Below the pieces are notes generated by a model, which was not told where the DNA came from, made no database searches, and was given only the letters and a program-made list of their open reading frames with translations. Position numbers and translations under genes: made by a program. From IMG/VR virus record IMGVR_UViG_3300022555_000016: 64,000 nt of DNA; one strand, 5' to 3'. Source of the DNA: an uncultured virus (IMG/VR IMGVR_UViG_3300022555_000016) (taxonomy: Duplodnaviria > Heunggongvirae > Uroviricota > Caudoviricetes). Below, piece after piece: positions 4,039 to 64,000 of this stretch; positions within the stretch are counted from its first letter, which is position 1; each line of letters opens with the position of its first letter.

Positions 4039-5681
4039 TTTCTTGAATTAGTTCTGGTTGCGTAGACTGTGGAACAGATTGACCCATTGCTTCCAGGTCG
4101 GCTACGTTAGTCGGTAGATTCGGCGGCGGCTTTTGATGCTTCTTATTACGACGCTCGTCAGCTTTCATCCGGCGGCGGGTAGCCCGATTCTGCTTACCGT
4201 CAATTTCTTCCTTGTAGGCCATGTAGGCCAGATTAACACAAAAAGCCCGGCGCAGGATACTGTCTTTATCAATAACCTTAATGTACGACTTGTGGTCCTT
4301 TTCGTACTTAGGAGTTTTGTACTCAACAAGCTGGTTACCTTGCTTGTCAAAAACGTGAGCGGTTCTAGAGACACGAATACTACCGGTCATCAATAACATG
4401 AAGAACGCCATATTGTTCTCCTGTGTATCTTCAGGAGCAACATACGGGTCTTCTACGTCATAGACAGTATCTACTGTCAACTCGTTAGCTGATTCACTAG
4501 CTTCGATCATCACTTACTCCACATTTTATAACAAAAAGTAGTTATTCCCATGATTACACTATTAGTTGACCCAAAAATAGAACGTACTGTACTTACGGTT
4601 ACTTGCGTAATGAGGTTATAAAGACCTTGTGTAGCAATCATGCTAAGAACAACTATAAAAAGAGCTATAGACAAAAACAACCAAACTATTCCGGAAATAG
4701 GCAACATTATTAAAAATAGTCTTCGGTATTTTCTCGGCCAGTTATAAACTTTCAAAAAATCATGCCAGGAGTTAATTATCGTATTTATCATGGTTATCAT
4801 GGTTACTTCCTATTATAACAATTATTAACAAACCACTCGTGGGAGTGTTGAGCACCACAGAAGACTAGAGGTGTGTCCAGACTTTCAACGAACAAAGGGT
4901 CGGCAAAGTAAACTACCGTACCTTGACTATCTACTAAAGGTTTACTCCCACACACGGCACAAGTTACATTAGACCAAACCATAAAAACCGGAGCCCCTGT
5001 TCTTTTAGCTTTCCAGTTAAATGTGACAAAATCAACCAATTGTGGTTTACTCATTCTGAGGGTTCTCGTTTCAAATGGAGAAAGTTAGACCAACCTATCC
5101 AATTATTCCATTGAGAATCTATGCACTGACCCCACTCAGCTATTAGTTTCAGATGAAACTTGTCTGCTAACCCAGTTCCTTTACAGGGAATGCAGAAAGC
5201 TGTGCGAAACGGTTGAACAGAACCAACAATAGTACCGTTACCGCCGCACATTCGGCACAAACACTTCAAATTACACCTAAACGTAGTTTATCAACCTCTT
5301 GTTGAAGGTTAACATGTTGATTAACTAGTTCCTGAAGTTTCTTCGGAACCAACTCTTCCGCTACAGACAACAACTTACTGCAAGTTCTAACTAGATTACG
5401 TTCTTGCTTAACAGTGGTCCAGTTACTGTTGATAGTGGATTCAACTGTATTATTTACAGATTCTTTCTTTGGAGAGGTTAAATTTAAAATATCGGAGTAA
5501 TGGAAATGTTTACCTACAATTTCTACCTTTATTGATAGAACGTCATCACTTTGTTCTATGATGTCTATGTCAACAATGGAGTTGGGATTAAGTTTCCTTA
5601 GATTGGAAAACAGGACAGCCTTTTCTGGGAAATCGTCCAGCGTTAACATTGTTAGCATGGTTATCATGGTTAGCAGCCTCT

Positions 5682-22076: not shown

Positions 22077-22499
22077 TTGACTATGTTAATCAAGAATAAG
22101 CGTAAAGCATATCATACAGTTGAGCAAAGGGTCTACTCTTGCCAATATCATGTAGTTTTATGCTCAAAGTTTAAACGTAAAGTTTTTGAAGGTGATGTTA
22201 AGAAAGCCTTTGAAAAATGGCTAAAAGATCAACAAGAGAACATTGGCTATACCCTTGTAGACTGCGAGATGGTTGTAGAGAGTATACACCTTGTACTAGA
22301 CGTAGACCCTAAAGTCGGAATACATAACGTAGTGGTTAGGATCAAGTCAGGCTCCTCAAACTATATCCGAAACAAATTTAAGGACGTAAAGACTAGGTTT
22401 CCATCCCTATGGTCACGCTCGTATTTTATTGCGTCTGTTGGGTCTGTTGCTCTACTAAGTATCAAGTCCTACATCCAAGCTCAAACAAAGTCCCAGTGA
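22077..22499 (+). CDS. tnpA: IS200/IS605 TnpA (Y1 HUH transposase) homolog, HUH degenerate
   Basis: VYSCQYHVV.CSKFKRK, IKSGSS, LWSRSYFIASVG, YIQAQ; the canonical DHVH reads ESIH. Confidence 0.9.
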   Translation: MTMLIKNKRKAYHTVEQRVYSCQYHVVLCSKFKRKVFEGDVKKAFEKWLKDQQENIGYTLVDCEMVVESIHLVLDVDPKVGIHNVVVRIKSGSSNYIRNKFKDVKTRFPSLWSRSYFIASVGSVALLSIKSYIQAQTKSQ

Positions 22500-22523
22500 C
22501 TTTTCAAGAAGGAGTGAACTAAT

Positions 22524-24611
22524 ATGTTTATAAATAGCTTAGGTCGTGTTTGTATAACTCCTGAAGAAGCTCAGGAAAAGGAAAACAAACTAGTTGAGAT
22601 GATTGATAAGGGTATTACAGATATAGCGGAATTGGCAACTCATTGGAATTGTCACTATGTTTCTATGTTACATTTCCTTAGAAGTAGGACTATTACTAGA
22701 AACGGACAAGACATACGGTTAGATATAGTGCTTAAAAATATTAGAGATGTTAAAAAGAAGGAAGCACATGATAAGATGATGTCATCAGTCAAAGCTTTAA
22801 TTGATGAGGGAGTAACTTCTATAAACGACTTAGCTATTAAACTAGAAGTTGACTATAACTTCATGTACCGTTTTCTAAGAAATAATAAACTGCTAAACCG
22901 GGGAAATGACGCAGGTCCTGTTAACTTCTTAAGAAACCGGACAACTTTAGACAAGACTTATGTTCTAAAATTGATAAAATCTGGTGTGGATTCTATCAGA
23001 GAATTAGCTGAAGAGGCGGGTGTTAATTATGAGACTATGGTTGACTTTCTTGATGATAAAGGTATCTCTAGAGAGAAGTTACTAGGTAGACGAGAACAGA
23101 ATAAAAGGGACTACCGAGATAACGTAGACAAGATAATAGAATTACTATCTAAAGGCTATACTAAAAAGGCGGTTGAGAAAGAGCTTGGTATAGGACGTAA
23201 AGGGGTTGATGTTATTTTAGACAGCCACCCTGAACTAAAAGATAGCTTTGAGAAGTCTCAAACCTCATATAATCTAAGTCTATACACTAATAGCATTGCA
23301 CCTCTGCTAAAAGCGGGAAAGTCTACTATAGAAATTAGTGAATTACTAAATCTTAAAGTAAGAGCTGTGCGTAGGGCTATAAAGGAGTTTAAAGAGAGTA
23401 AAAAGCCTGTTAAAACTAGGTTACTCGACAATAAGACTATGTCGAGGTTTAATAAACTGTTGGTTAAGGGTAGGTCCCTAGATAAAATTGCTAGAATTTT
23501 AGACTTACCTGCATCTTCTATGTTAGGCTATATCTATAGTAACCCACAGCTAATGGACTCTTATAACATTGTGGAAGACAAGTTTGGTTTAGAAAAGCAA
23601 ATAGCAGAAAAACTGTTTGCTTTATTAAGGTTAGGTACTACAGTAAGAGATATAAAAGATAGACTGAATATAAGCCACGCCTTATACTTTAGACTCAGGA
23701 AACGTTACGCAGAGGATTACGAAAAGGCTTTTCTAAAAAGCCACAATTTCGTAAATAAAATAGATACTGACACCAGAATGCTTCGCATAAAAGCAAACTA
23801 TTCCGCTCTTAAAAGTCGCTGCAAGAAACGCGGAATTCCTTTTGCTATTGAAATTGACGATGTTGAATATCCAGAGTATTGTCCAGTTTTAAATATAAAA
23901 CTAAACTATTTTGGTAAACGTGGTGAAGGAGATATGAGAAATTATTTTTCTTATGACAAATTTTACCCACGTAAAGGTTACCTCGTAGGTTTAGTATTTT
24001 GTATGAGTCACCGAGCTAACACACTTAAAAATGACCTTAAATCTTCAAGAGAATTAGGGTCAATAATTTCAGCTCTTAAAGGTGACCCTAAGTTTAAAAC
24101 TAACTATATCACAAACGATGACTACCGTATGAGTATGTACCGTAGGGCCAAGCACAGAGCTAAAAAGAAGGGTATGCCGTTTACTATAACGCCAGAAGAC
24201 ATCAAACTTCCTGCGAGATGTGTCGTGCTAGGCATACGTCTATGCTACACTAACGATACTATGAGATACAATTCGCCTTCACTTGATAGAATTGACAATT
24301 CGAGGGGGTACGAGCCCTCGAACATCTGGGTCATATCAGCGCGTGCTAATGGGCTAAAACTTGACGCTACTGTTGAAGAGCTTAAACTGTTGTTTAAGTG
24401 GATGCGTAAAGTAGAAGACGTTATGCTTATTAAGACTTTTAGAGACCTTAAACTCAACAAAACTAAAGGTGTTCCTCTATCATCTAAACCTAGAATTTCT
24501 ACAACACCTGTTGTAAAAGATCATCTTACTAAGTCTAAGGTGAATACTCCAGAAGACATTAAGGCAGAGATTAGTAGGCAGAGCCTGCTGAAACAACGAT
24601 CTCTATTTTAG
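22524..24611 (+). CDS. multi-HTH protein with two C-terminal HNH-like (beta-beta-alpha) nuclease domains
   Basis: About 6-7 HTH-like repeats; RxKKxGxPF..CPVL..SYDK/SLDRIDNSRGYEPSNIWVISARAN domains. Confidence 0.75.
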   Translation: MFINSLGRVCITPEEAQEKENKLVEMIDKGITDIAELATHWNCHYVSMLHFLRSRTITRNGQDIRLDIVLKNIRDVKKKEAHDKMMSSVKALIDEGVTSINDLAIKLEVDYNFMYRFLRNNKLLNRGNDAGPVNFLRNRTTLDKTYVLKLIKSGVDSIRELAEEAGVNYETMVDFLDDKGISREKLLGRREQNKRDYRDNVDKIIELLSKGYTKKAVEKELGIGRKGVDVILDSHPELKDSFEKSQTSYNLSLYTNSIAPLLKAGKSTIEISELLNLKVRAVRRAIKEFKESKKPVKTRLLDNKTMSRFNKLLVKGRSLDKIARILDLPASSMLGYIYSNPQLMDSYNIVEDKFGLEKQIAEKLFALLRLGTTVRDIKDRLNISHALYFRLRKRYAEDYEKAFLKSHNFVNKIDTDTRMLRIKANYSALKSRCKKRGIPFAIEIDDVEYPEYCPVLNIKLNYFGKRGEGDMRNYFSYDKFYPRKGYLVGLVFCMSHRANTLKNDLKSSRELGSIISALKGDPKFKTNYITNDDYRMSMYRRAKHRAKKKGMPFTITPEDIKLPARCVVLGIRLCYTNDTMRYNSPSLDRIDNSRGYEPSNIWVISARANGLKLDATVEELKLLFKWMRKVEDVMLIKTFRDLKLNKTKGVPLSSKPRISTTPVVKDHLTKSKVNTPEDIKAEISRQSLLKQRSLF

Positions 24612-24633
24612 ACTGGATGGAATCCAAAGGTGT

Positions 24634-24894
24634 CTAACCCAACACCTTGTAAAACTTTCCCTTAAATGCTAAACCTCTAGAGTAGTCCAAAGGTGTTCCT
24701 AAAACAGGACAATGTGTTACACTAGCTGCCTTTTTAATGTCCGCTGCACAGAGCCCAAAGGGTACACCTTCTAGTTTAGCCTGCGCTTCAATGTCTGTTA
24801 ACATTCTAGCTATTTCGCTCTCGTTGAATACTACGTTCTCAGACTTTTCCAACTTGCTAGTCTTCAACTTCTTCTTAAGCTTGCTTTCACCCAT
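24634..24894 (-). CDS. small protein with truncated CPVLG nuclease-associated module
   Basis: AKLEGVPFGL..DI...THCPVLGTPLDY; lacks the DRID..N catalytic part. Confidence 0.55.
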   Translation of the reverse strand: MGESKLKKKLKTSKLEKSENVVFNESEIARMLTDIEAQAKLEGVPFGLCAADIKKAASVTHCPVLGTPLDYSRGLAFKGKFYKVLG

Positions 24895-24961
24895 GTTACC
24901 TACTCCAGTTGTTCACTACACCCAATGTACCAATACAACCAACCTCAAAAGGAATCTAATC

Positions 24962-25111
24962 ATGACTAGCCAAAAGACTCCAGTAACCACTGAGACTTTC
25001 AAGCAACCTACCAGCCGTGCAGAAATTCTTGCACTTACGGGTATGAAAGAGCTTCCTACTCACTGTCCAGTTTTGGGTATCAAGCTGAACTACTCTAACC
25101 TACGTGACTAA
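24962..25111 (+). CDS. 49-aa protein with truncated CPVLG module
   Basis: AAGGA RBS, then MTSQK...ELPTHCPVLGIKLNY; followed by a terminator. Confidence 0.55.
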   Translation: MTSQKTPVTTETFKQPTSRAEILALTGMKELPTHCPVLGIKLNYSNLRD

Positions 25112-45529: not shown

Positions 45530-46552
45530 TCAGTTATTAGTGGCACGCAACTTGTCAATTTCATCTTCGTTTAACGAATAGTGGATACCCATAAGCAACA
45601 TTGCGATGCCTGATTCGTCCGCGTAACGAACTATGCGAGACATACGGTGCTGCCGCTGTCTCGCTATCAATGAGGCTTCCATATCAGAATTTTCGTTGGG
45701 GTCCTGAAGATCAGCTACTGATTCCAAATCAACGTAGAAGTTGAGTAGTTGTTGACCTTGATTTTGTAACTTACGGCGCTGAACTGAAGGTATACTGTAA
45801 GCAGTACCAAATTCATGACTACTAACCGCAGCATGAACACCGTCTTTAAACCAAGCCTCAATGTAACTGGTTAAAGCTCCTCTATCAGGATCGTATTTAT
45901 CAATACCTTTAGATATACTAAGGAGTAAATTACCTATCAAATCTACTTGAGAAATGTGCAGCTTGGTATGCTTCATAGCACTACGACTTTTATTGCAAGC
46001 ATTACGCACATGTTTTTCAATAATATACCCTTTAAACGTAGAACTAAGCTCGTAGCTGATTTGAGCGTTTCTAATTGTGGTATACAAACTACCTTGGCAG
46101 TTAAATACTGACCGTTCAATAACATTGAGCTGCTTTAATAACTTAGAACGCTCCTTAACATCTTGAATTGTCCAAAGCTTAAGGTACAATTCTTCATATT
46201 CCTTAGTGCGCTTGAAAAACTCAGCTAACATGTCAAACCACACATTTCGCTCGAGTCGTAACTCAGTAAGGAGCAGCTTTTTACGAACTTTGGATGGAGT
46301 AGCAAGCATCGTAAAAAGCTTACAAATGAAGTCTGTTCGTTCTACGTTGGAGTACTTTCGCCTATTGTTAGAGTAAATGCTAGTAAAAAGTTCAGCAATC
46401 GTATTTTCAACAAAGTTTGTATTTTCCAGAATAGGTGTAACGGCAGACATCAAAAGAGTATCAAGTACTGCTACAATTTGCGACCCTGATAGATTGTAAT
46501 TAAGTTGCTCTTTAATGTTAAGAAGAGCGTGTAAACTATCTGTATCTGACAT
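45530..46552 (-). CDS. phage RNA polymerase sigma factor (sigma70 region 2-like)
   Basis: DLIGNLLLSISKGIDKYDPDRGALTSYIEAWFK; start placed at MSDTD. Confidence 0.75.
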   Translation of the reverse strand: MSDTDSLHALLNIKEQLNYNLSGSQIVAVLDTLLMSAVTPILENTNFVENTIAELFTSIYSNNRRKYSNVERTDFICKLFTMLATPSKVRKKLLLTELRLERNVWFDMLAEFFKRTKEYEELYLKLWTIQDVKERSKLLKQLNVIERSVFNCQGSLYTTIRNAQISYELSSTFKGYIIEKHVRNACNKSRSAMKHTKLHISQVDLIGNLLLSISKGIDKYDPDRGALTSYIEAWFKDGVHAAVSSHEFGTAYSIPSVQRRKLQNQGQQLLNFYVDLESVADLQDPNENSDMEASLIARQRQHRMSRIVRYADESGIAMLLMGIHYSLNEDEIDKLRATNN

Positions 46553-47702: not shown

Positions 47703-48128
47703 TTACTTCAACCATTCTTTGGGAAACCCCAAAATTCTTACGTCTAAGTTTATCACGTCGCAGAGTTTCTTAAGATCATGAACATCGCTGCGCTTGGAAC
47801 GCTGCTCTGCTCTAACAACGAGTTCTACAGAGACTCCTGACTTAAACGCCAAGTCTTCTACAGACAACCCGGCTGCCAATCTAGCGTCCTGGATATCTTG
47901 TTCGCTATTAGGTAGAATAGCAGTACCTTTGTCAAAAATCTCCAAGATCATTGCTTTAAACGCTACTGGAGTCATAATAGTTTTAAGATAATCAGCAGTA
48001 ATTCTAACTCCGGTAGCAGGCTGACTATCTATAGCAATGTGATCTTGACACCTAACAAAAACATCAGGTGTTGTATCAACACCTTTACTGTTTGTAATAA
48101 CGTAGTCCATAACGAACCTCCTGCTCAA
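47703..48128 (-). CDS. XRE-family HTH protein
   Basis: IQDARLAAGLSVEDLAFKSGVSVELVVRAE. Confidence 0.75.
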   Translation of the reverse strand: MSRRFVMDYVITNSKGVDTTPDVFVRCQDHIAIDSQPATGVRITADYLKTIMTPVAFKAMILEIFDKGTAILPNSEQDIQDARLAAGLSVEDLAFKSGVSVELVVRAEQRSKRSDVHDLKKLCDVINLDVRILGFPKEWLK

Positions 48129-53053: not shown

Positions 53054-54787
53054 TCAACCGACGTAGTGATTGCCTCTAATTAACCGTGAGTCCTTCTGAA
53101 TCTGAATCTTGAAAGGTGTTGTTAGTACCTTCTTGACCCAGTCTTGGTCAACCGTAGGCAATCCCATACGAGTCTTGAACTTTCTAAGGACGTTTACTGA
53201 GGATTGAACGTCAGAGTGAACATGAATCCCTTTAGCGGTGATATACAAGCCTCGTCGGACCCGTGTACCACTGTAATGAGGACTGGGAGCACCCTTAACA
53301 TAGCATGGAGGGAGATAGTCACCGTCCATAGCAGACCCTTTACTAGTGTGTGATTCATTCTGTAAGTGGACTGTAATACCTACTGCTACGCACTTGTAGG
53401 TTAACATTTCCACGAACCGATTGAAGGGGAGCCTAGTAAAGTTCTTCATACCCTTAGCAAACTGTTTCCAGTCTAGATTCCTACCGATAACTAGGATTAC
53501 GACACCCTTCTCCACGAGCAGCTTCACTAGCGTGCTGGAAACGTTGTGGAGGTAGTGGTCCAGTCTATTTCTAAGCTTATTGTAAGCGGCTTGAATCCTC
53601 TTTGAAGAGTTCTGTGGGACTTTAGAAGTTAGAATCTGACTCAACTCCTGATCGTACTCAGGAGGCTCGGGGTACAATGAATCGTGAGTAGCAAAAGCTT
53701 GCTGAACCATCAAACCTAGCATAAGGTAGTTAAACGGGTTGGACTCAGGGTCTTTCAACTCCCTAAGACGTTTCCTCTTCAACTCTAGCTCTTCTTTAGC
53801 TTTAGTACGTTCGTCTATTAACTGACGTTCCCTAGCCGGTTTAGACCAGTAGAGGTCCCGTTTAAGCTCTTCTATCTGGTAGTAGGACCAAAGTAATAGA
53901 GACTTCAGAATCCAACCGTTAAAGGCTATAGGCTTTGGATTACCTTCGATTACCCCAGCGGCTGTAACGTTTAACCCTAGGTCAAAGCTTGCTATGGCTT
54001 GTAGTTCTTCCTGCTTAGCAGTCCAGTTACCTGTAATCTCTTCGTTGTAGACTACTTCTACGTTGTAACCACCTACTATTGGTATGTAGCGTACTTCCGT
54101 GATTCCAACGTCTCTTAGGACAGGTTTACCCCTGGAATCCTTCTTTATAGCTTGTTTACCGTTAGCGTCGGTAACAACTTGAGGTTGCATGTGGAGGGTG
54201 AAGGGTATTTCCTGTTTAAACTCAGGATTCTTAGGGCAAAGGGTGATGATTCCCTTGGGAGCAATAGACTCTGATAACCTAGCGCCTTTGACCTGTTTCC
54301 TATCAGAATCAATGATCTGACCACCGGACATGGTCTGGTAGGTAAATTTAACAGGCTTACGACTGTCAGTCCTACGGATGTACTTATCACCCTTGAATCC
54401 AGGCGGTTGAGGGCAAGCCTTGTACTTCTTAGGAAACTGTTTCTGGAGTTCCTTGCTTTTAGTCCACTCCCAGAAGTCAAACCAAGCTGCTTCGAAGGAC
54501 TTCCAGTCGTCATGGAGCATCTTAACGGTAGCTTGAGCTACTTTAGCAGGTAACCGTTGGTACTCTAGAGTCGGTTTTAACAGCTTAACTAGCTCTGGTA
54601 GACTAGGAATCCTACGCCGTTGGAAGCCTGGTTTCTTATAGTTGTCTTGGTTGTAATTCCAGATTTCTAGTAGAAGGTGGAGACCTACATGATAGAGTTT
54701 GGAGGACAAAAAGCAAGTACGATCAATACTCCTATCCCAAGGGTGTTTTGGACCTACAAACTGTTTTTGAGTCCTAGTTTCTAACAT
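53054..54787 (-). CDS. tnpB: TnpB-family RNA-guided nuclease, enlarged (577 aa), zinc-finger-less clade
   Basis: RuvC-I FDLGLN; RLDHYLHNVS; LVIGRNLDWKQ; NF..LPF..F..MLTYKC..VGI; NESHTSK; SGTRVRRGLY; RuvC-III HSDVQSSVNVLRK. Confidence 0.9.
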   Translation of the reverse strand: MLETRTQKQFVGPKHPWDRSIDRTCFLSSKLYHVGLHLLLEIWNYNQDNYKKPGFQRRRIPSLPELVKLLKPTLEYQRLPAKVAQATVKMLHDDWKSFEAAWFDFWEWTKSKELQKQFPKKYKACPQPPGFKGDKYIRRTDSRKPVKFTYQTMSGGQIIDSDRKQVKGARLSESIAPKGIITLCPKNPEFKQEIPFTLHMQPQVVTDANGKQAIKKDSRGKPVLRDVGITEVRYIPIVGGYNVEVVYNEEITGNWTAKQEELQAIASFDLGLNVTAAGVIEGNPKPIAFNGWILKSLLLWSYYQIEELKRDLYWSKPARERQLIDERTKAKEELELKRKRLRELKDPESNPFNYLMLGLMVQQAFATHDSLYPEPPEYDQELSQILTSKVPQNSSKRIQAAYNKLRNRLDHYLHNVSSTLVKLLVEKGVVILVIGRNLDWKQFAKGMKNFTRLPFNRFVEMLTYKCVAVGITVHLQNESHTSKGSAMDGDYLPPCYVKGAPSPHYSGTRVRRGLYITAKGIHVHSDVQSSVNVLRKFKTRMGLPTVDQDWVKKVLTTPFKIQIQKDSRLIRGNHYVG

Positions 54788-55136
54788 CTCGTGAGTCCAA
54801 TTTAAAAAGAGTCTAGGAGAAAATTTACAACCAAAATTAAGATTCTGACTCGAGGTGAATCAGAAAAAGATTCTAGAAAGATTCTTACAAAAAACTTAAG
54901 GTTCTTGTAGAAACTAAGTTAAGGTATTCAATACTAGACCCATTAGGTTTTGTCCTTACCTCGATACTTATCCAACAACTTCTTCTCGTCTTCATCAAGG
55001 TGGTCATAAGGAAGACCGCCGGACATGTTGAGTAGAAGATTTTGTAGTTGAGCTTCTTCTGACTCAGGTTCGGACAATAGGGCACAGTTCTGATCAAGCT
55101 CAAGGCCAAAAGTTTCTGACATGACAAACTCCTTTA

Positions 55137-57155: not shown

Positions 57156-57228
57156 GAGAAATTTTTCACAAAAAATAAACCTAGTAGACTCTATTAACTA
57201 GAGTCTACTAGGTTGTTAATGAGAAAAG

Positions 57229-58296
57229 TCATGGCTTACTTGGCTTACGCTTCGAGTTAATGTCAACTACGTTAGGAGAAGCAAACTTCTTAACTTTTGG
57301 TTTAGTAGTTAACTTCTTCAACTCAGTCTTAATTGTTGCCAACTCTGTACGGTATCCCTGCATCAAAGCATCAACTTCTGTCTTAAAGGTCTCATGCTTC
57401 TCGGTCAAAACGTTGATTCTCAGTCGTAGATGAGAGTTGGCAGATTGTAACTTACCAAAATCAACAGCTAACTTAAGACAAACATCTAGGTTTGAACGAG
57501 TCATAGTCACAGTCTGGTTTAGATCGTTTGCTAAATCAGCCACCTTAGCAGGAATTGGAGCAGAGAGTTTCTTGACACGTAGCCCCAACTTTTTAGTTCT
57601 AGCGGCTGACTTAGCTACATCGTCCACACAGGTCTCTGTGTCAATTACTGCGTTCGCTACTTGCTCAGCCACAGAAGTCTTAATCTTTGAAGTTACTTCT
57701 GGAGTTAGTTTGTTGAGAAGCTTCATCAGCGTAGGCTCTTGTTCGGCAAGAACCGTCTTAATTACATCCTGAACATCTCCCATAGTCATGTAGCGAGGGT
57801 ACGGCTCAACCTCCTTTGAGTTTGAGTAGGGAGGATGCCACATGTCCTGACGAGGTGGATTGTTAGCGGCGTCAAACTTACCAATTTTACGGATAGAAGG
57901 AAGGACGGTTCCTGTAACCCACTTACGAAACTTGTGCGGCGTCGTACCTGCCGTAGTAGCTAGACGACAACGGAGCGTTAAACTATAGAACCCTGATTCG
58001 TTAATCAAAGTAACCAGTTTAGCACCACTTACCAGACCCTCCGTTGAACCGAGGGTCGAGGCCAACCCATTGATTTTGCTCATTATATCCTGAAATCCAG
58101 GCTCACCGTACTTAACTAGTGAATGCTCATCCTCGTCTAGTTGGTTCTTAGCACTACTGGGATTCTTGATGCCTAGGAACTTGCACACGTCAACCAACTT
58201 AAACCAAGGTTCATCATTCTTAATAAAGACGATTAGTGGGTTACCAGCAAAGTCAAACGTCTGCTTGTCGTACACGGTAGTAGCCTTACTAGTCAT
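57229..58296 (-). CDS. BRO-N domain (antirepressor-like) DNA-binding protein with coiled coil
   Basis: FDFAGN..EPWF..DVCKFLGIKNPS, INESGFYSL, FRKWVTGTVLPSIRKIG; promoter TTGACA-17-TAGGGT at 58352-58380 supports the start at 58296. Confidence 0.88.
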   Translation of the reverse strand: MTSKATTVYDKQTFDFAGNPLIVFIKNDEPWFKLVDVCKFLGIKNPSSAKNQLDEDEHSLVKYGEPGFQDIMSKINGLASTLGSTEGLVSGAKLVTLINESGFYSLTLRCRLATTAGTTPHKFRKWVTGTVLPSIRKIGKFDAANNPPRQDMWHPPYSNSKEVEPYPRYMTMGDVQDVIKTVLAEQEPTLMKLLNKLTPEVTSKIKTSVAEQVANAVIDTETCVDDVAKSAARTKKLGLRVKKLSAPIPAKVADLANDLNQTVTMTRSNLDVCLKLAVDFGKLQSANSHLRLRINVLTEKHETFKTEVDALMQGYRTELATIKTELKKLTTKPKVKKFASPNVVDINSKRKPSKP

Positions 58297-58539
58297 AGTG
58301 AACAACCCTTTCTCAAGGGAGGTCAAGCTGATTCCTGACCTACCGACTATGACCCTACACCCTTCCGAATCCTTTGTCAAGAAAAATCTAAAATTTTTGT
58401 TAATAAGAAAATTTGTCAAGCAAAATCAAAGGTTTGTCTGTCTATGAGAGTTTGATGAATCAAAAAACCCAGTAAACTCTAGTTAAAGAGTTTACTGGGC
58501 TTAAGAGCTACTAAACTACTTAGACAAGCAGACAGCGGT

Positions 58540-59586
58540 CTAGTCCTCTAAACTGTCTTCATTCCTACTACGGAAGTATTTACGTAGAAGGTCACGTAAG
58601 GTTATATTGTTTCCAGATAGTACGGGGAGACCTTGCCAATCGTCTACTAAGTCTACATCAGGATCAAACTTTGAATCAACGATTACGCTTCTACGAGAAA
58701 CATAGCCTCGATGCTTCTTAGAACCATGATGGTTGTGTGCTATAGTACCGGAAATATAGCCTATGTTCTTACGAACGTACTGGCTACATAGCTGTACAAA
58801 CCTAGACAAGCGGCGACGATAACCTGGAGTAATAGTGTCTGGATCAATGAAGTCTACTGAAGAATGATCTAAATTTAACAAACCTGCAAAGGAGAGTGCC
58901 ATGACATAGTCTGCTGCTCCAGTAACACACCAGTCTAAAATGCCAATCTTGTCGTAAATCTCTTTACGAATTGCCCAGGCGTAGCCATAATGACTCTTAG
59001 GAGCTTTAAAGCTATGACCGTAGTCAGCGTTAGGTACTTCCCGAAAGTCCCCGTCTACCCACGCCGCACAGAATGACTTATCTACGGTAGAACCATGCTC
59101 ATTTTGAATAATCTCTCCTTTTGCGGAAAGATCAACTGAATTGGACCAAGGTTGCACGACTGCGTAGTGCTGTAAAGCAGCAATCGTTTTACTAGCCCAC
59201 TGAGCGTCAAGAAATGTCAAGTCAGCATCAATCCAAGCAATGTACTTAGCATCATGAGGGACAGCACGACTAATTCCTACTTTAATTAAAGCCTCTTTTA
59301 ACCAAGTCTCATGGCGTTCATCACCACGCAGTTGGACATGGAAAGGATTAGCAGCGTCAGTTACTTCCCACGGACGATTACCGAAAGCGTGCTCTACACG
59401 AATAACTTGAACGTTAGGTGTAGACTCCAAACGCTCAACACATTGGAGAAATAGAGGAACACGACTTTTCCAACCAACGGGATTAGACAACACGGCGATA
59501 CAGTAAAGTGTGTTTTCTGGGTCTAAACCGCTACGTGGGTCTTTAGGATGACTATAGTGTAAACCAACATTAAGTTTGTTTGACAT
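58540..59586 (-). CDS. GT-A fold glycosyltransferase-like protein
   Basis: WLKEALI..G, YIAWIDADL (DxD), HYGYAWA, GAAD, HNHHGS..R.Y. Confidence 0.65.
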   Translation of the reverse strand: MSNKLNVGLHYSHPKDPRSGLDPENTLYCIAVLSNPVGWKSRVPLFLQCVERLESTPNVQVIRVEHAFGNRPWEVTDAANPFHVQLRGDERHETWLKEALIKVGISRAVPHDAKYIAWIDADLTFLDAQWASKTIAALQHYAVVQPWSNSVDLSAKGEIIQNEHGSTVDKSFCAAWVDGDFREVPNADYGHSFKAPKSHYGYAWAIRKEIYDKIGILDWCVTGAADYVMALSFAGLLNLDHSSVDFIDPDTITPGYRRRLSRFVQLCSQYVRKNIGYISGTIAHNHHGSKKHRGYVSRRSVIVDSKFDPDVDLVDDWQGLPVLSGNNITLRDLLRKYFRSRNEDSLED

Positions 59587-59723
59587 TTCTTGAAACCTTC
59601 TTAAAATTATTAACCTCAGCCCTACGATCAAAATTAAGAACCAATAGTAGTTTTTAAAGACGTTGTTACAAAACGACACAATTTTTCTTAGTTTTACCAC
59701 AATTTTGTAACATTACTACCAGG

Positions 59724-59778
59724 CGTAAAAAGAGTCCAGTAGCACGAAAACTACTGGACTTCAAGGACACATTGACTG
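59724..59778 (-). repeat. composite repeat copy 1: CGTAAAAAGA-hairpin-CACATTGACTG
   Basis: Same flanks as 62191..62249 around a different hairpin (GTCCAGTAG/CTACTGGAC). Confidence 0.6.
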
Positions 59779-59800
59779 GAAGATAGCTAGTAACACTAAA

Positions 59801-60814
59801 CTAAGTTTGTTCTCTAAGTTTTGCAGCGTTTAAGTAGTCAATGGCACGTCTGATTAGTTTAGTCTTGTCTCTAAACTCACCTAACGCTACATTGCATGTG
59901 CGACAAGCGTAGCCTCTAATTAAACCTGTAGTGTGGCAATGTTCAATTTCAAGGTAAGGAACGTCATTACCACAGATAGCGCAAGTGCAGTAAGTAGATG
60001 ATACTTTATCAAGTAACTTTCTTAAGTACCTACCATGAGCTGCGTTGTTTTTACCTTTAAAACCATTCAAAACCGTATGGATCATTAGCCTAACCCTAAT
60101 GGAAAACTTAACGTTCTCTATTACAATTACAGCAATTTTAGACCTTGAAAAGTTAAGCAGCTTACTAATAGTTTTAGTTGACTTGCCAGATTCCCATAAA
60201 CCTATTACTTTTTTAGCAAAGTCTATTTTAATAGCTCTACGTGTAGCACTTCCCTTATCAATACTCTCCTTAAGAGGAGATGCTCTTTTTAAGATATTAT
60301 TAGGAATACTGTTTTTAGTAAGAGCCTTGCTAACAGTATTCACAGAAATATTAAATTTTGCTCCAACTTCAGCCTTGGTAACATTAGGTTCAGAAAGATA
60401 AGCTTTACAGATTTGTTTTTCCAGCTTACCTGTCAACTTCCTAGAATTTGGCCTACCTGCGGCGTTAACTAGTCTAATAACTATACCGTTTTCTTCTAAG
60501 ACTTTCCTTATGGTATGCTTGCTTACCCCGTAGTCTTTAGCAAGTTTAACCAAGTTTTGTAATTTAATATAGTCTTTTGCTATGGCGGCTTCCTCCGCCT
60601 CAGAAAAAACATGCCTACCATTAACCATAGGACGTGTAAACTCTTTTTTACGATCTTTCCTAAACTGCCTACGCTTAACTACCCTTACGCCGTGCTTTGC
60701 CCGCACTTTGCGTACAATATAACCACTAACATTACAAATCTTACCTGCTTCTTTTAAGTTAAAGCAAGAATTATAGGCGTTTATTATAAGAAGCTCATCT
60801 TCTTTGGACAACAT
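59801..60814 (-). CDS. multi-HTH protein with C-terminal endonuclease VII domain
   Basis: About 4 HTH repeats; CAICG..IEHCHTTGLIRGYACRTCNVALG. Confidence 0.85.
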   Translation of the reverse strand: MLSKEDELLIINAYNSCFNLKEAGKICNVSGYIVRKVRAKHGVRVVKRRQFRKDRKKEFTRPMVNGRHVFSEAEEAAIAKDYIKLQNLVKLAKDYGVSKHTIRKVLEENGIVIRLVNAAGRPNSRKLTGKLEKQICKAYLSEPNVTKAEVGAKFNISVNTVSKALTKNSIPNNILKRASPLKESIDKGSATRRAIKIDFAKKVIGLWESGKSTKTISKLLNFSRSKIAVIVIENVKFSIRVRLMIHTVLNGFKGKNNAAHGRYLRKLLDKVSSTYCTCAICGNDVPYLEIEHCHTTGLIRGYACRTCNVALGEFRDKTKLIRRAIDYLNAAKLREQT

Positions 60815-60842
60815 GTGTAAATCCTTTATACTTAAGGTTAAA

Positions 60843-61651
60843 CTAAAGCGGATACTTTAAGTAAAGTATCGCCGATTCCATATAGTCAGTATTGTCTTTA
60901 AGCAGCCCTAATCCCGAGTTGCAACAGTAACATAAGTAACCTCTAATAGCACCACTTACGTGGCAATGATCTATAGTTAAAGATTCTACTTCTCCACAAA
61001 TGTCACACGCTCTAGGTTTAATGTCTAGCATACGTCTTAAGTACTCCTTACTAGATTCATAACTGGTACCTAATAAATTTGTTGTAACGTAAGTTATTAG
61101 GCTTTCAATCTTCTTAGAGAAGTGCCTATTTTCACAAATGTAGTCTGCTACGTTATATATAGGCTTCCTAATGTTAGCAGAAATAGTGTCAATATTAACA
61201 CCTTCATCCCACATAGTTAGTATACTATTAAACGTATCTTTATGCTTACGGACTCTTTCTTTTAAAGCTTCCTCAGAATTAGCGTGTTTTATAGATTCTT
61301 CATGTATAGCTTTACGTTTATTACGTTGAAATTCCGTATTAGTAGGTATTCCAAAGGAATTTAAAATTCTACTAACTGTAGTACAACCAACATTATATTT
61401 AATGGCTAAAGAACTAATGTTAGCGGAGGGAGTTTCATACTCACGACATAAGGCTACTTTTTGCTCATAAGATAAAAAGGTTTTAGACTTACTTTTAATA
61501 ATTGAAGTGTCTAAACAAAAATCTATATCATGTTTCTTAAGCACTTTTTAATCTTATAAACTGTAGTACTAAACCTAACAGCCGTGCCATTTAAGTTTGA
61601 ACTTTTGGTATAGAAATCGACAATGGTTAATTCTTGCTCTTGAGTAAACAT
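60843..61651 (-). CDS. multi-HTH endonuclease VII protein, N-terminal HTH joined via a frameshift at 61545-61549
   Basis: CDICG..IDHCHVSGAIRGYLCYCCNSGLG; upstream ATG 61651 with AGAAGGA RBS encodes MFTQEQELTIVDFY..KIKK out of frame by one nt. Confidence 0.8.
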
Positions 61652-61670
61652 AACTAAAATCCTTCTAGGT

Positions 61671-62084
61671 TTACAGTTTGCGTTGAAGTTCAATGAACGC
61701 TAGAATCTCTTTAACGGAGGAGGAACCTACTGTAGCAATGAAACAATTCTTGGTCCACATGCAAGGGATTCGACTCTTTAGGTCAGGAAACTTGGACCGT
61801 AGAATCCTAGCTGAACCATCTTTGATCTTATCAACTATAGACATAATAGTTACGGTTGGGGGTATGTCTACTACTACGTGAACATGGTCGTCTGTAATCT
61901 CCACTCCCAATAACACGTAACCAAACTCTACTTGTTTGTCTCTAATGAATCCCTTTAATACTGTAGAAATACCGTCAACCAAGACATGACGACGATACTT
62001 GGGGCAGAACACTATGTGGTACTGACAGGAGAAAACCTTGTTGTTTTCCTTACGGTAGGCTTTCTTGGGAGGCTTTACCAACAT
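61671..62084 (-). CDS. tnpA: IS200/IS605 TnpA homolog, catalytic Tyr replaced by Phe
   Basis: VFSCQYHIVFCPKYRR, intact DDHVH, IKDGSARILR, MWTKNCFIATVG, FIELQ instead of YIxxQ. Confidence 0.92.
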   Translation of the reverse strand: MLVKPPKKAYRKENNKVFSCQYHIVFCPKYRRHVLVDGISTVLKGFIRDKQVEFGYVLLGVEITDDHVHVVVDIPPTVTIMSIVDKIKDGSARILRSKFPDLKSRIPCMWTKNCFIATVGSSSVKEILAFIELQRKL

Positions 62085-62190
62085 TTTAGAATATTCCTTA
62101 TAAGTAGACTCTTAGTTTAACATAGCTCCTATCTTAAAATTAGATTATTACCAAATTTTAAAGGCTGATAGTAAAAGAAAATTTTACTCT

Positions 62191-62249
62191 CGTAAAAAGA
62201 CAAAAGCCTTAGGAGATTATCTCCTAAGGCTTTAAGATCACATTGACTG
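62191..62249 (-). repeat. composite repeat copy 2 / terminator after hfq
   Basis: CGTAAAAAGA-CA-AAAGCCTTAGGAGA/TCTCCTAAGGCTTT-AAGAT-CACATTGACTG. Confidence 0.6.
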
Positions 62250-62303
62250 AGTCATAGTAGATAAACTGATGATAGTAAGTTACTAGAGAAGTTGAATAAC
62301 GTC

Positions 62304-62504
62304 TCAGTTACTCGCGCTACACGGTAGTACTGTCGATACAGCTTGGATGAATACTATTTGCTCAATACCTCTCCCAAATAGCTTGATAACTTTAGCATCA
62401 AATGCGGTGATCTGACCTTGAAGCTTAATTCCACTATTTAGGAAGATTGTGACTTCGGCTCTACGAGCTACCAAATCAGACAGAAAATCTTCTTGTACAG
62501 ACAT
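62304..62504 (-). CDS. hfq: Hfq-family Sm protein
   Basis: VQEDFL..VTIFLNSGIKLQGQITAFD..EQIVFIQAVSTVLP; start at ATG 62504. Confidence 0.9.
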   Translation of the reverse strand: MSVQEDFLSDLVARRAEVTIFLNSGIKLQGQITAFDAKVIKLFGRGIEQIVFIQAVSTVLPCSASN

Positions 62505-62737
62505 GTTAATAAGTCCCTTTATTATGAGGCACTTTTTCAAAAGTGACCTTCTTTGTTGAAAATAGATAAAATTTTAGTCATTATAGCAAACAACCAAACC
62601 CACACCCTTAAACTAAAATTAGGATTATTAAAAATATCTATTATAGTTAACTTATAATTTAACGGTACGTATAGCTACTTAGTCATTAAAATCAAGGCAT
62701 TATAGGCAGATAAACATAGTAGAATTTAGACAAAAAG

Positions 62738-62771
62738 AAACCCTGTTGGACAATTAAGCCCAACAGGGTTT
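62738..62771 (-). terminator. hairpin terminator after nrdJ
   Basis: AAACCCTGTTGG/CCAACAGGGTTT with a T tract on the minus strand. Confidence 0.65.
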
Positions 62772-62795
62772 CAGGTTTACAGAGTCAAAGTCAAG

Positions 62796-64000
62796 TTAAC
62801 CACATTTAGAGTAACCGCAGTCTAAACAGGATTGGCACCCTTCTTTACGTATTAAACTAGGCTGTTGGCACTTTGGGCAAATTTCACCCAGCACCTTAGG
62901 CTTAACACTAGAATCAACCTGTTCAATGTTAACTAAACGGTCCTTACTGGTGTCGTGATAGTTAATACTTTGTAAGTGCTGATGTATGATTATACCGATG
63001 TACGCAGTTAAGGATGGGATATATTTACCCTTAACCCATTGACCGCCTTGAGGAGAGTGCGTCTGCAAAAGCTCTTCAATTACGAAACTAGCATCTGTTC
63101 CGTCATCAGCGGAACGACGGAAGATTCCAGATATCATCCGGGTCAAGGCTACGATTAACTCTAGGCTCTCTACGGCTTTAGTATTAACAAAAAGCTCAAA
63201 GGGAAGAACCTTACCGTCTTCCGAAATTATATTGTTAATAGTTATGTAGTAAGCGCGTGAAGAGTCTACACCCCACTTTATCTTATAAGACTTACCTTCC
63301 AGAACATCAGGCCGCTCAGGCTTACCGTTCTTGCTCATTTTCTTAGTAACCTTTTCTTCTTGAGGCAAAGCTTTTAGCTCGTCAGCAGTTACTGCTTCAG
63401 AAGTGACACTTAATATACTACCACGATTAGGATTGGGGCGATAGGTAGTAACTCCCTTACACCCCGTATCGTAAGCGGTCATGTATACAGACTTAAACTC
63501 ATCAAAAGTTATAGACTCAGGACAGTTAACAGTTTTACTAACAGCAGCGTCAATATACGTCTGACAAGCAGCTTGCATAGCTAAATGTTCATCAACAGTA
63601 AGTTCTAAGGCTGTAACCATACTATTAGGCAAACTGCTTAAAGAAGCAGTTACTGGGTCAAGCTTGTTTACTGAACAATATAGCTGCCATCCGCGATCAC
63701 AAACAGCAAACTCCTTAAATGACTCGTCTAACTGGCGAACTTTCCTATAGTACCTGAAAGAAAAAGTTGGCTCCAACCCTGAAGATACATTACCGTAGTA
63801 CAGACTAGTTGTACCATTAGGAGCACAGGTCTGTAGCACGGCATTACGGATACCAGTCTTCCTTATTAACTTTTGAGTATCCTTAGGTAAGTCTTTAAAG
63901 AAATGATTATCACACCACCCTTTACTGTACAAAGGAAAGGCTCCACGCTCTACAGCTAATTCAGCGGACGCGTGATAAACAGTATCACGCCAAGTTTTTA
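62796..64000 (-). CDS. nrdJ: class II (adenosylcobalamin-dependent) ribonucleotide reductase, 5' end outside window
   Basis: ELAVERGAFP, GIRNA..APNGTTS..SSGLEP, HL.MQAA.Q.YID.AVSKTVN, GCKGVTTYR, RP..LEGK domain, CPKC..EGC..C.DCGYSKCG. Confidence 0.93.
   Translation of the reverse strand, partial: KTWRDTVYHASAELAVERGAFPLYSKGWCDNHFFKDLPKDTQKLIRKTGIRNAVLQTCAPNGTTSLYYGNVSSGLEPTFSFRYYRKVRQLDESFKEFAVCDRGWQLYCSVNKLDPVTASLSSLPNSMVTALELTVDEHLAMQAACQTYIDAAVSKTVNCPESITFDEFKSVYMTAYDTGCKGVTTYRPNPNRGSILSVTSEAVTADELKALPQEEKVTKKMSKNGKPERPDVLEGKSYKIKWGVDSSRAYYITINNIISEDGKVLPFELFVNTKAVESLELIVALTRMISGIFRRSADDGTDASFVIEELLQTHSPQGGQWVKGKYIPSLTAYIGIIIHQHLQSINYHDTSKDRLVNIEQVDSSVKPKVLGEICPKCQQPSLIRKEGCQSCLDCGYSKCG

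Follow-up and report, generated by a model that had tools for sequence, protein, structure and literature searches.

We analyzed a 64-kb window (the whole stretch of 64,000 nucleotides) of an uncultured virus, and focus here on positions 59724-62249, designated cassette 2, where a gene encoding a TnpA-like protein (tnpA-2) and two genes encoding endonuclease VII (EndoVII)-type proteins with helix-turn-helix (HTH) modules stand between two terminator hairpins, repeat copies U and D. With a probability of about 0.6, we consider this cassette to be a free-standing homing-endonuclease island that includes a non-catalytic TnpA-like gene and has a PeSL-like terminator module, duplicated or recombined, at its borders. 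This reading builds on the gene content, the terminator structure, the exact identity of the terminator flanks and the lesion at the TnpA-2 active site, all of which are observed in the DNA.

Organization of the cassette

All genes of the cassette lie on the minus strand, in the order ribonucleotide reductase (RNR; 62796-63998, with its own terminator), phage hfq (62304-62504; Pfam Hfq, 4.1e-14), hairpin U (62191-62249), tnpA-2 (61671-62084; IS200-like Y1/HUH fold, Pfam Y1_Tnp, 1.2e-29), a short HTH open reading frame (ORF), endo7_a, endo7_b, hairpin D (59724-59778) and a glycosyltransferase (GT)-like gene (58540-59586), such that hfq forms the upstream and the GT-like gene the downstream flank. 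Behind tnpA-2, a 19-nt gap holding AGAAGGA (61652-61670) precedes ATGTTTA at 61651, where three-frame translation places the start of a 42-codon HTH leader ORF of the first nuclease gene (61523-61651). It is followed by the nuclease ORF of endo7_a, with an HTH and a C-terminal EndoVII-type (DHHRN-like) domain (60843-61544; Pfam Endonuclease_7, 1.2e-16), and by endo7_b, which combines several HTH modules with a C-terminal EndoVII-type nuclease (59801-60814; Endonuclease_7, 1.9e-15; HTH_23, 3.6e-7). The coordinates and Pfam matches confirm the order given in a first-pass annotation of this DNA, namely tnpA-2, the 19-nt gap and two HTH-EndoVII genes. Its description of the latter as AT-rich multi-HTH genes agrees with the domain matches and with their GC contents of 32.8% and 36.7%, vs. 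41.1% for the window, but the first of them is split by a -1 frame change. It also saw the same junction style in another TnpA-nuclease pair of the window (cassette 1), but the gap of cassette 1 measures 24 nt, not 19. The name glycosyltransferase for the downstream gene is backed by one source, which labels a 41%-identical homolog 'Glycosyl transferase' (474 homologs, all at or below 59% identity), but Pfam and PHROGs searches gave no match. Rfam and tRNA scans revealed no match near the cassette.

Bracketing terminators with matching flanks

The cassette had been described as bracketed by a composite direct repeat with matching flanks and differing hairpins, and both motif counts and fold comparison agree with this description. 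On the minus strand, copy U reads CAGTCAATGTG-AT-CTT, a hairpin of 14 pairs with a loop of 3 (62233-62203) and TG-TCTTTTTACG, while copy D reads CAGTCAATGTG-TC-CTT, a hairpin of 11 pairs with a loop of 6 (59760-59733) and C-TCTTTTTACG. The flanks are exactly identical over 11 nt on the 5' side and 10 nt on the 3' side, whereas the stems do not align and the hairpins have neither stem nor loop sequence in common; the stem of U corresponds to an inverted repeat (I8) of 15 nt with 100% complementarity. A motif search, which the first-pass annotation had proposed, found CAGTCAATGTG and CGTAAAAAGA twice each within the window, both times at U and D only. Both copies consist of a G+C-rich stem-loop followed by a T-run on the coding strand, as in intrinsic terminators, and they are placed accordingly: U, the terminator of hfq, lies 54 nt past the hfq stop (62304), and D, the terminator of the cassette, lies 22 nt past the endo7_b stop. 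The predicted folds are strong (U, -26.7 kcal/mol, z -5.33; D, -24.0 kcal/mol, z -5.88), with 0/200 shuffled sequences equally stable in either case. Moreover, each of five consecutive minus-strand genes (57178-62772) ends in a hairpin and T-run. Between the two options raised earlier, a duplicated terminator module or the ends of an element, the strong hairpins with T-runs just past stop codons favor the former.

To compare the flanks in their terminator context, we took 30 nt before and 14 nt after the stem of 21 terminator-like hairpins of the window. Among the resulting 210 pairs, U/D was the only one with long matches at both flanks (11 nt on the 5' side, 9 nt on the 3' side); the next-best 3' run was 8 nt, in a pair with a 5' run of just 4 nt. 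The U/D similarity reaches about 12 nt further upstream of the 5' flank. The RNR terminator resembled U no more than unrelated pairs resemble each other (score 10, within the noise). These repeat, terminator and motif counts cover the 64-kb window of a genome of about 208 kb. The motif pair also occurs once in a metagenome contig of the same genome (L059, see below). No second copy of the element was found in the window, and a 17-base version of the motif gave six matches in IMG/VR, about the chance number for 17 fixed bases; since none of them stands at a hairpin, the U/D motif is not a widespread element.

Related observations were made at other regulatory sites. The terminators of the GT-like gene (58465-58502) and of the Bro-N gene (57178-57214), both on the minus strand, each have a 16-pair stem; the two stems are similar, and paired changes account for their differences. 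In addition, the hfq promoter region (62588-62640) and positions 4675-4720, 58 kb apart, have two runs of 12-13 nt in common in the same order, which by sequence is probably a repeated promoter module. Since the GT-like and Bro-N stems are related and the hfq promoter stretch recurs, short regulatory modules are reused in this genome. Inside a coding region (46276-46319), the 10-nt arms of an inverted repeat, GCTTTTTACG / CGTAAAAAGC, are separated by 24 nt; this repeat contains the 3'-flank word of the terminators, lacks terminator context and is probably due to chance.

TnpA-2 and its active site

TnpA-2 (137 aa) matches Y1_Tnp (PF01797) over profile positions 2-121 of 121 with 103.3 bits, vs. 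a cut-off of 23, and IS608 TnpA from the PDB at 3e-31 over residues 9-135. We used H64, H66 and Y127 of IS608 TnpA, the tyrosine being located on helix alpha-D, as active-site reference residues. The HUH motif is kept in TnpA-2 as H67-V-H69, whereas F130 (codon 61697-61695) aligns with the nucleophile Y127. In an 18-row alignment, phenylalanine occupies the tyrosine site in TnpA-2 and tyrosine is found in the other 17 rows; a contig of a third study spans the F130 codon with no differences. In IS608 TnpA, Y127 is reported as the nucleophile, with the HUH histidines and Q131 as metal ligands (PMC3201880, PMC6006769). Y127F serves as the standard catalytic knock-out of that enzyme; as described in PMC3597680, the mutant protein still binds its ends and forms the synaptic complex, the active sites being assembled in trans from two monomers. 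Judged by its residues, TnpA-2 is thus predicted to be non-catalytic and, since the tyrosine nucleophile is absent, incapable of peel-and-paste transposition; by analogy with the IS608 mutant, it may be capable of binding DNA hairpins.

We therefore consider it highly improbable that cassette 2 is a working or recently working IS200/IS605-type transposon, with U as its left end, D as its right end, TnpA-2 as its transposase and the nucleases as cargo or helpers. The fold of TnpA-2 is clear, the order of hairpin, tnpA, cargo and hairpin resembles that of IS608 (PMC3201880), and the IS608 target TTAC is present in the T-run behind both hairpins; however, the nucleophile is replaced by F130, and neither a further copy, in the window or IMG/VR, nor an excision joint, among contigs, was seen. 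Furthermore, the ends of IS200/IS605 elements are described as similar imperfect palindromes that are both bound by one TnpA (PMC3201880); in IS608, the cleavage sites lie 19 nt from the left hairpin on its 5' side and 10 nt from the right hairpin on its 3' side, and a 4-nt guide is located 5' of each (PMC3201880, PMC6006769). U and D show the opposite, i.e., like flanks around hairpins without a common stem or loop sequence. On these grounds we rejected them as transposon ends, and the earlier option that the repeats represent element ends falls.

Neighbors and paralogs of TnpA

The genes that adjoin tnpA elsewhere are of a different kind. In 49 IMG/VR loci with TnpA, tblastn with the nucleases of the window gave no matches, and a Pfam analysis of 41 of the 84 listed neighbor ORFs (repeats of one element were left out) revealed 15 TnpB-type proteins, one GIY-YIG protein and no EndoVII or HNH nuclease. 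Among 160 further loci with TnpA relatives, a profile made from the TnpB ORFs of the 49-locus set detected a TnpB-like neighbor within 1.5 kb in 112, while phmmer searches of their 1120 neighbor ORFs with the window's nucleases gave no matches, and an EndoVII-motif pattern matched one of these ORFs, an IscB-type protein. That TnpA loci have TnpB-like genes and no relatives of these nucleases nearby is a further argument against the transposon. Within the window, both TnpA-like genes (2/2) are followed after 19-24 nt by a multi-HTH nuclease gene with a strong ribosome site in front of it. The family of TnpA plus interchangeable HTH-nuclease elements suggested in the first-pass annotation is borne out by both cassettes seen in this genome, but not by any of the 49 + 160 loci, and the TnpAs concerned are lesioned. 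TnpA matches in phage records (Nodularia, Geobacillus E3, Saccharomonospora) turned out to be ordinary TnpA-TnpB elements. In a literature search, in which subscription journals were out of reach, neither a pairing of TnpA with EndoVII/HNH homing endonucleases nor a catalytically dead phage TnpA was encountered.

TnpA-2 is accompanied by paralogs with lesions of their own. TnpA-1 of cassette 1 (22083-22499, plus strand; 38% identical to TnpA-2) has lost the first histidine of the HUH motif (S-I-H) and keeps the tyrosine. An exhaustive protein search revealed a third paralog, P0147 (137 aa, 39% identical), with H-V-H and a tryptophan at the tyrosine site; its record lists the same sources and the same 208,448-nt longest contig as those of TnpA-1 and the cassette proteins, and from these shared records it is very probably encoded elsewhere in the same ~208-kb genome. 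All three are full length, each with a different catalytic lesion (S-I-H, Tyr to Phe and Tyr to Trp). The active-site residues H, H, Y and Q are present in 80/80 of the best IMG/VR TnpA loci, and in GTDB, among 81 TnpA matches in 80 loci, 74 were intact, four substituted and three partial. A set of 151 aligned rows comprised the best 150 representatives of a 1.84-billion-protein library and TnpA-1, which duplicates P0143; in this set, the first HUH histidine is kept in 118/151, and the tyrosine site holds Y in 96, F in 24, W in 5, another residue in 10 and a gap in 16. Such 50%-identity representatives over-sample odd sequences. Where Tyr is replaced, aromatic residues prevail (of 39 non-Tyr residues, 24 are F and 5 are W), which suggests a maintained fold. 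Defects are present in 57 of the 125 full-length rows. With the trait columns excluded from tree building, they require 29 changes, vs. a mean of 41.2 for shuffled traits (0/500 shuffles as low), although well-supported branches enforce just seven changes and long-branch attraction may play a part. Since both library counts and tree show repeated defects, loss of catalysis seems recurrent in this part of the TnpA family. The phage paralogs do not group in a supported clade, and P0140 and P0138, the rows nearest to them, are intact. P0139, the nearest Phe-bearing homolog, was not found in IMG/VR, and a GTDB scan with P0139 and P0162 returned mostly intact insertion sequence (IS) copies.

Possibly, TnpA-2 is an exapted pseudo-transposase that binds DNA hairpins or single strands and targets or regulates the adjoining HTH-HNH nuclease, or TnpA-1 (S-I-H, Tyr) and TnpA-2 (H-V-H, Phe) form a heterodimer, which would rebuild one active site because those of IS608 are arranged in trans (PMC3597680). 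We regard this as unlikely, even though the short distance between TnpA-like and nuclease genes in both cassettes, the full length of three differently lesioned paralogs, the aromatic substitutions that point to a kept fold, and the end binding and trans assembly reported for IS608 TnpA (PMC3597680) speak in its favor. The adjacency is confined to one genome, the nuclease types differ between the two cassettes, and the absence of a supported paralog clade, along with the intact nearest rows, makes independent decay possible; moreover, the sampling of the library inflates the share of odd sequences.

The EndoVII-type nucleases

The proteins encoded by endo7_a and endo7_b are 31-32% identical and paralogous, and direct repeat D1 shows that the HTH modules are alike. 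endo7_a matches the PHROG endonuclease VII family at 5.8e-20, and Hpy99I is the closest solved structure for both (endo7_a, 2.9e-6; endo7_b, 2.2e-5). The motif reads CDIC...DHCH...R...CYCCN in endo7_a and CAIC...EHCH...R...CRTCN in endo7_b; thus both carry the DHHRN residues CX2C, D/E-H-x-H, R and CX2C-N at the C-terminus, with E replacing D40 in endo7_b, a position described as 'conserved in most' EndoVII-motif enzymes (PMC6083498). The same source gives a C-terminal EndoVII motif as typical of an 'endonuclease clade', to which F-CphI, Hpy99I and intron-encoded enzymes belong (PMC6083498). On these sequence features endo7_a and endo7_b are most likely free-standing homing endonucleases. The Rfam scan gave no match to a group I intron. 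In tblastn searches of phage records with both nucleases, catalytic domains alone were matched (19-35% of the query covered), and a word search of 5.8 billion clusters gave no relative of endo7_b.

The HTH leader ORF (61523-61651) and the nuclease ORF of endo7_a (60843-61544) overlap by 22 nt in the -1 frame, and U-AAA-AAG at 61550-61544 is a candidate -1 shift site. Since no insertion or deletion is listed at 61550-61523 in any of four sequencing runs, the split is either a frameshift site or a real lesion, not an assembly slip. A -1 shift at U-AAA-AAG would be the only way to a whole endo7_a, and the arrangement would represent either an expression throttle or a lesion.

Relatives and empty sites

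An empty site between hfq and the GT-like gene, which the first-pass annotation had proposed to look for in relatives, was found neither in IMG/VR nor in metagenome contigs or phage records. Megablast of 58500-63000 against 50,697 phage records gave no match. In IMG/VR, the GT scan gave no match, the RNR scan returned only RNRs of 37-40% identity, and the hfq scan only two bacterial-type hfq genes. A GT profile scan of metagenome contigs yielded 80 loci, with hfq, RNR, tnpA or the nucleases nearby in L059 alone; this contig is 100% identical to the window across 15,458 nt and represents the same phage genome. Since there is no empty-site relative in these collections, the route of insertion is one that we infer. 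Contigs that skip the cassette were absent from four runs of three studies, in which assembled contigs were compared and rare forms can stay hidden.

In two of these runs (X1 and X2), one contig near phage depth joins 62169-62198, the 3' flank of U, to 58318-58380, the promoter region of Bro-N. The sequence on both sides of the 58380>62169 joint is unrelated and the shorter side measures 30 nt; the joint is weak, was not used as evidence, and possibly stems from a further site of this genome at which both modules are reused.

Weighing of the evidence

Several observations weigh against an island bounded by a terminator module. In a loose test, in which any 11-mer and 10-mer in the same order within 60 nt was counted anywhere in 200 simulated windows, 3.4 pairs were expected per window and at least one pair was present in 181/200; hence composite repeats as such are not significant. 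The terminator at 48066 (plus strand) also shares a 5' 11-mer with U (its 3' match is only 4 nt), and because another terminator pair has an 11-mer in common, the 5' match by itself is not decisive. Only two copies of the module exist within 64 kb. No sigma-70-like promoter with a score of at least 9/12 was found just past U or D on the minus strand, so that the promoter half of a PeSL is unsupported. The first nuclease gene is whole only via the -1 shift, and with no empty hfq-GT junction in the searched collections the boundaries of the insertion are deduced from the window. Finally, IS200 itself has a left end with a terminator-like hairpin, and terminator shape alone does not exclude an old transposon end.

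Some of these observations could also mean that the flank identity is a coincidence of unrelated terminators and that the cassette is a patch of decaying selfish genes. This explanation, which we hold to be improbable, draws on the chance level of the loose test, on the second 5' 11-mer coincidence, on T-runs that inflate 3' matches, and on a dead TnpA next to a frame-split nuclease gene. It is countered by the in-register match of U and D at either flank of hairpins between which exactly one cassette stands (the only such match in 210 pairs), by the poor runner-up pair and by the similarity that continues upstream.

According to the island reading, the cassette would be a three-gene accessory unit on the minus strand, transcribed as one unit from a start behind terminator U to terminator D. 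The nucleases would cut cassette-free genomes in mixed infections, and recombinational repair would then spread the cassette. The terminator module would have been duplicated, or have provided the site of recombination, upon entry of the cassette between hfq and the GT-like gene. In mixed infections, homing endonucleases would bias the inheritance of the island by the mechanism reviewed in PMC13565253. Such islands do not need a transposase. Homing activity, the recombination route and the role of the TnpA-like gene are parts of the proposal that we derive from the arrangement of genes and terminators.

Comparison with known systems

In IS200/IS605 elements, TnpA is paired with an RNA-guided nuclease (TnpB or IscB) that serves as the homing endonuclease of the element. 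Cassette 2 resembles such elements (IS608, ISDra2) in that a small gene of the Y1/HUH TnpA fold comes first, a co-directional nuclease next, and hairpins stand near both borders. It differs from them in carrying Phe in place of the catalytic Tyr, in its dissimilar border hairpins, in the single copy and the lack of any excision sign seen so far, as well as in its partner, a protein-guided HTH-EndoVII nuclease and not TnpB or IscB. TnpA-REP/RAYT proteins, domesticated Y1 transposases, offer a precedent for an IS200-type TnpA fold outside classical IS (PMC8266576); however, RAYTs retain HUH and Tyr and act on REP hairpins, whereas TnpA-2 has a broken active site and a family of repeated hairpins was not seen.

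On the nuclease side, the EndoVII-motif homing endonucleases of the F-CphI/DHHRN kind are similar in their C-terminal motif, their low GC and their location as free-standing genes between conserved phage genes (PMC6083498), but the endo7 proteins differ in their long N-terminal HTH arrays and in being tandem paralogs, one with E for the first D and one frame-split. The free-standing Seg/Mob islands of T4 likewise have nuclease genes wedged between conserved genes; such homing-endonuclease islands are described as spreading by cutting the cassette-free genome in co-infection and as having no discrete ends (PMC13565253), while cassette 2 forms an operon headed by a TnpA-like gene and bracketed by terminator copies. 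In PeSL cassettes of T4-like phages, short, conserved regulatory stem-loop modules flank variable genes and have been proposed as recombination points for gene cassettes (PMC4122927). Unlike PeSL modules, U and D are seen in two copies only in the 64 kb, have differing stems with matching flanks and lack a promoter match of at least 9/12, and the searched collections yielded no close relative in which an insertion or deletion could be placed at the module. The locus joins known kinds, a homing-endonuclease island and an IS200-derived gene.

In the cassettes, the TnpA-then-nuclease order recurs; their nucleases are protein-guided HTH-HNH enzymes, and the TnpA-like genes, three paralogs in one phage, remain intact despite the loss of catalysis. 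Should this pairing prove functional, it would parallel the TnpA-TnpB partnership as an independent system guided by protein, with a pseudo-transposase newly used in a virus. One could even imagine a two-part selfish or defense-like system, in which the pseudo-transposase would recognize hairpins or single strands (e.g., terminator hairpins with conserved flanks) and the HNH nuclease would cleave, or in which paralogs with complementary lesions would rebuild one active site and act as a nickase, though we would give this little chance. If the pairing is not functional, the locus is a warning that a hairpin-flanked Y1_Tnp match does not equal a transposon unless the active site and ends pass inspection.

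Other features of the genome

The window is phage-like, with 106 ORFs nearly all on the minus strand, and encodes, among further phage-type proteins, RNR, RecA-like, Bro-N, Thg1 and DNA methylase products. The longest contig on record for the clusters of the cassette proteins measures 208,448 nt, consistent with an uncultured freshwater phage of about 208 kb. The nuclease of cassette 1 (22524-24611, plus strand; 695 aa), which begins after the 24-nt gap from tnpA-1, has many HTH units (HTH_7, 2.2e-12) and two HNH-type stretches (phrog_3322 endonuclease, 2.1e-45, in two stretches). The cassette 1 region (22077-25111) is the only sizeable plus-strand block of the window, and behind the nuclease gene two ORFs (24634-24894, minus strand; 24737-25111, plus strand) carry weak fragments that resemble the nuclease domain of the 695-aa protein (E 0.01-0.02).

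A 577-aa TnpB-like ORF without an adjoining tnpA was also found at 53054-54787 on the minus strand (OrfB_IS605, 5.3e-9; Cas12f1-like TNB, 8.8e-7). Over its 5' part and upstream sequence (54012-54935), all four runs show elevated depth and numerous short, divergent contigs, as expected for the end of a multi-copy IS common to other genomes.

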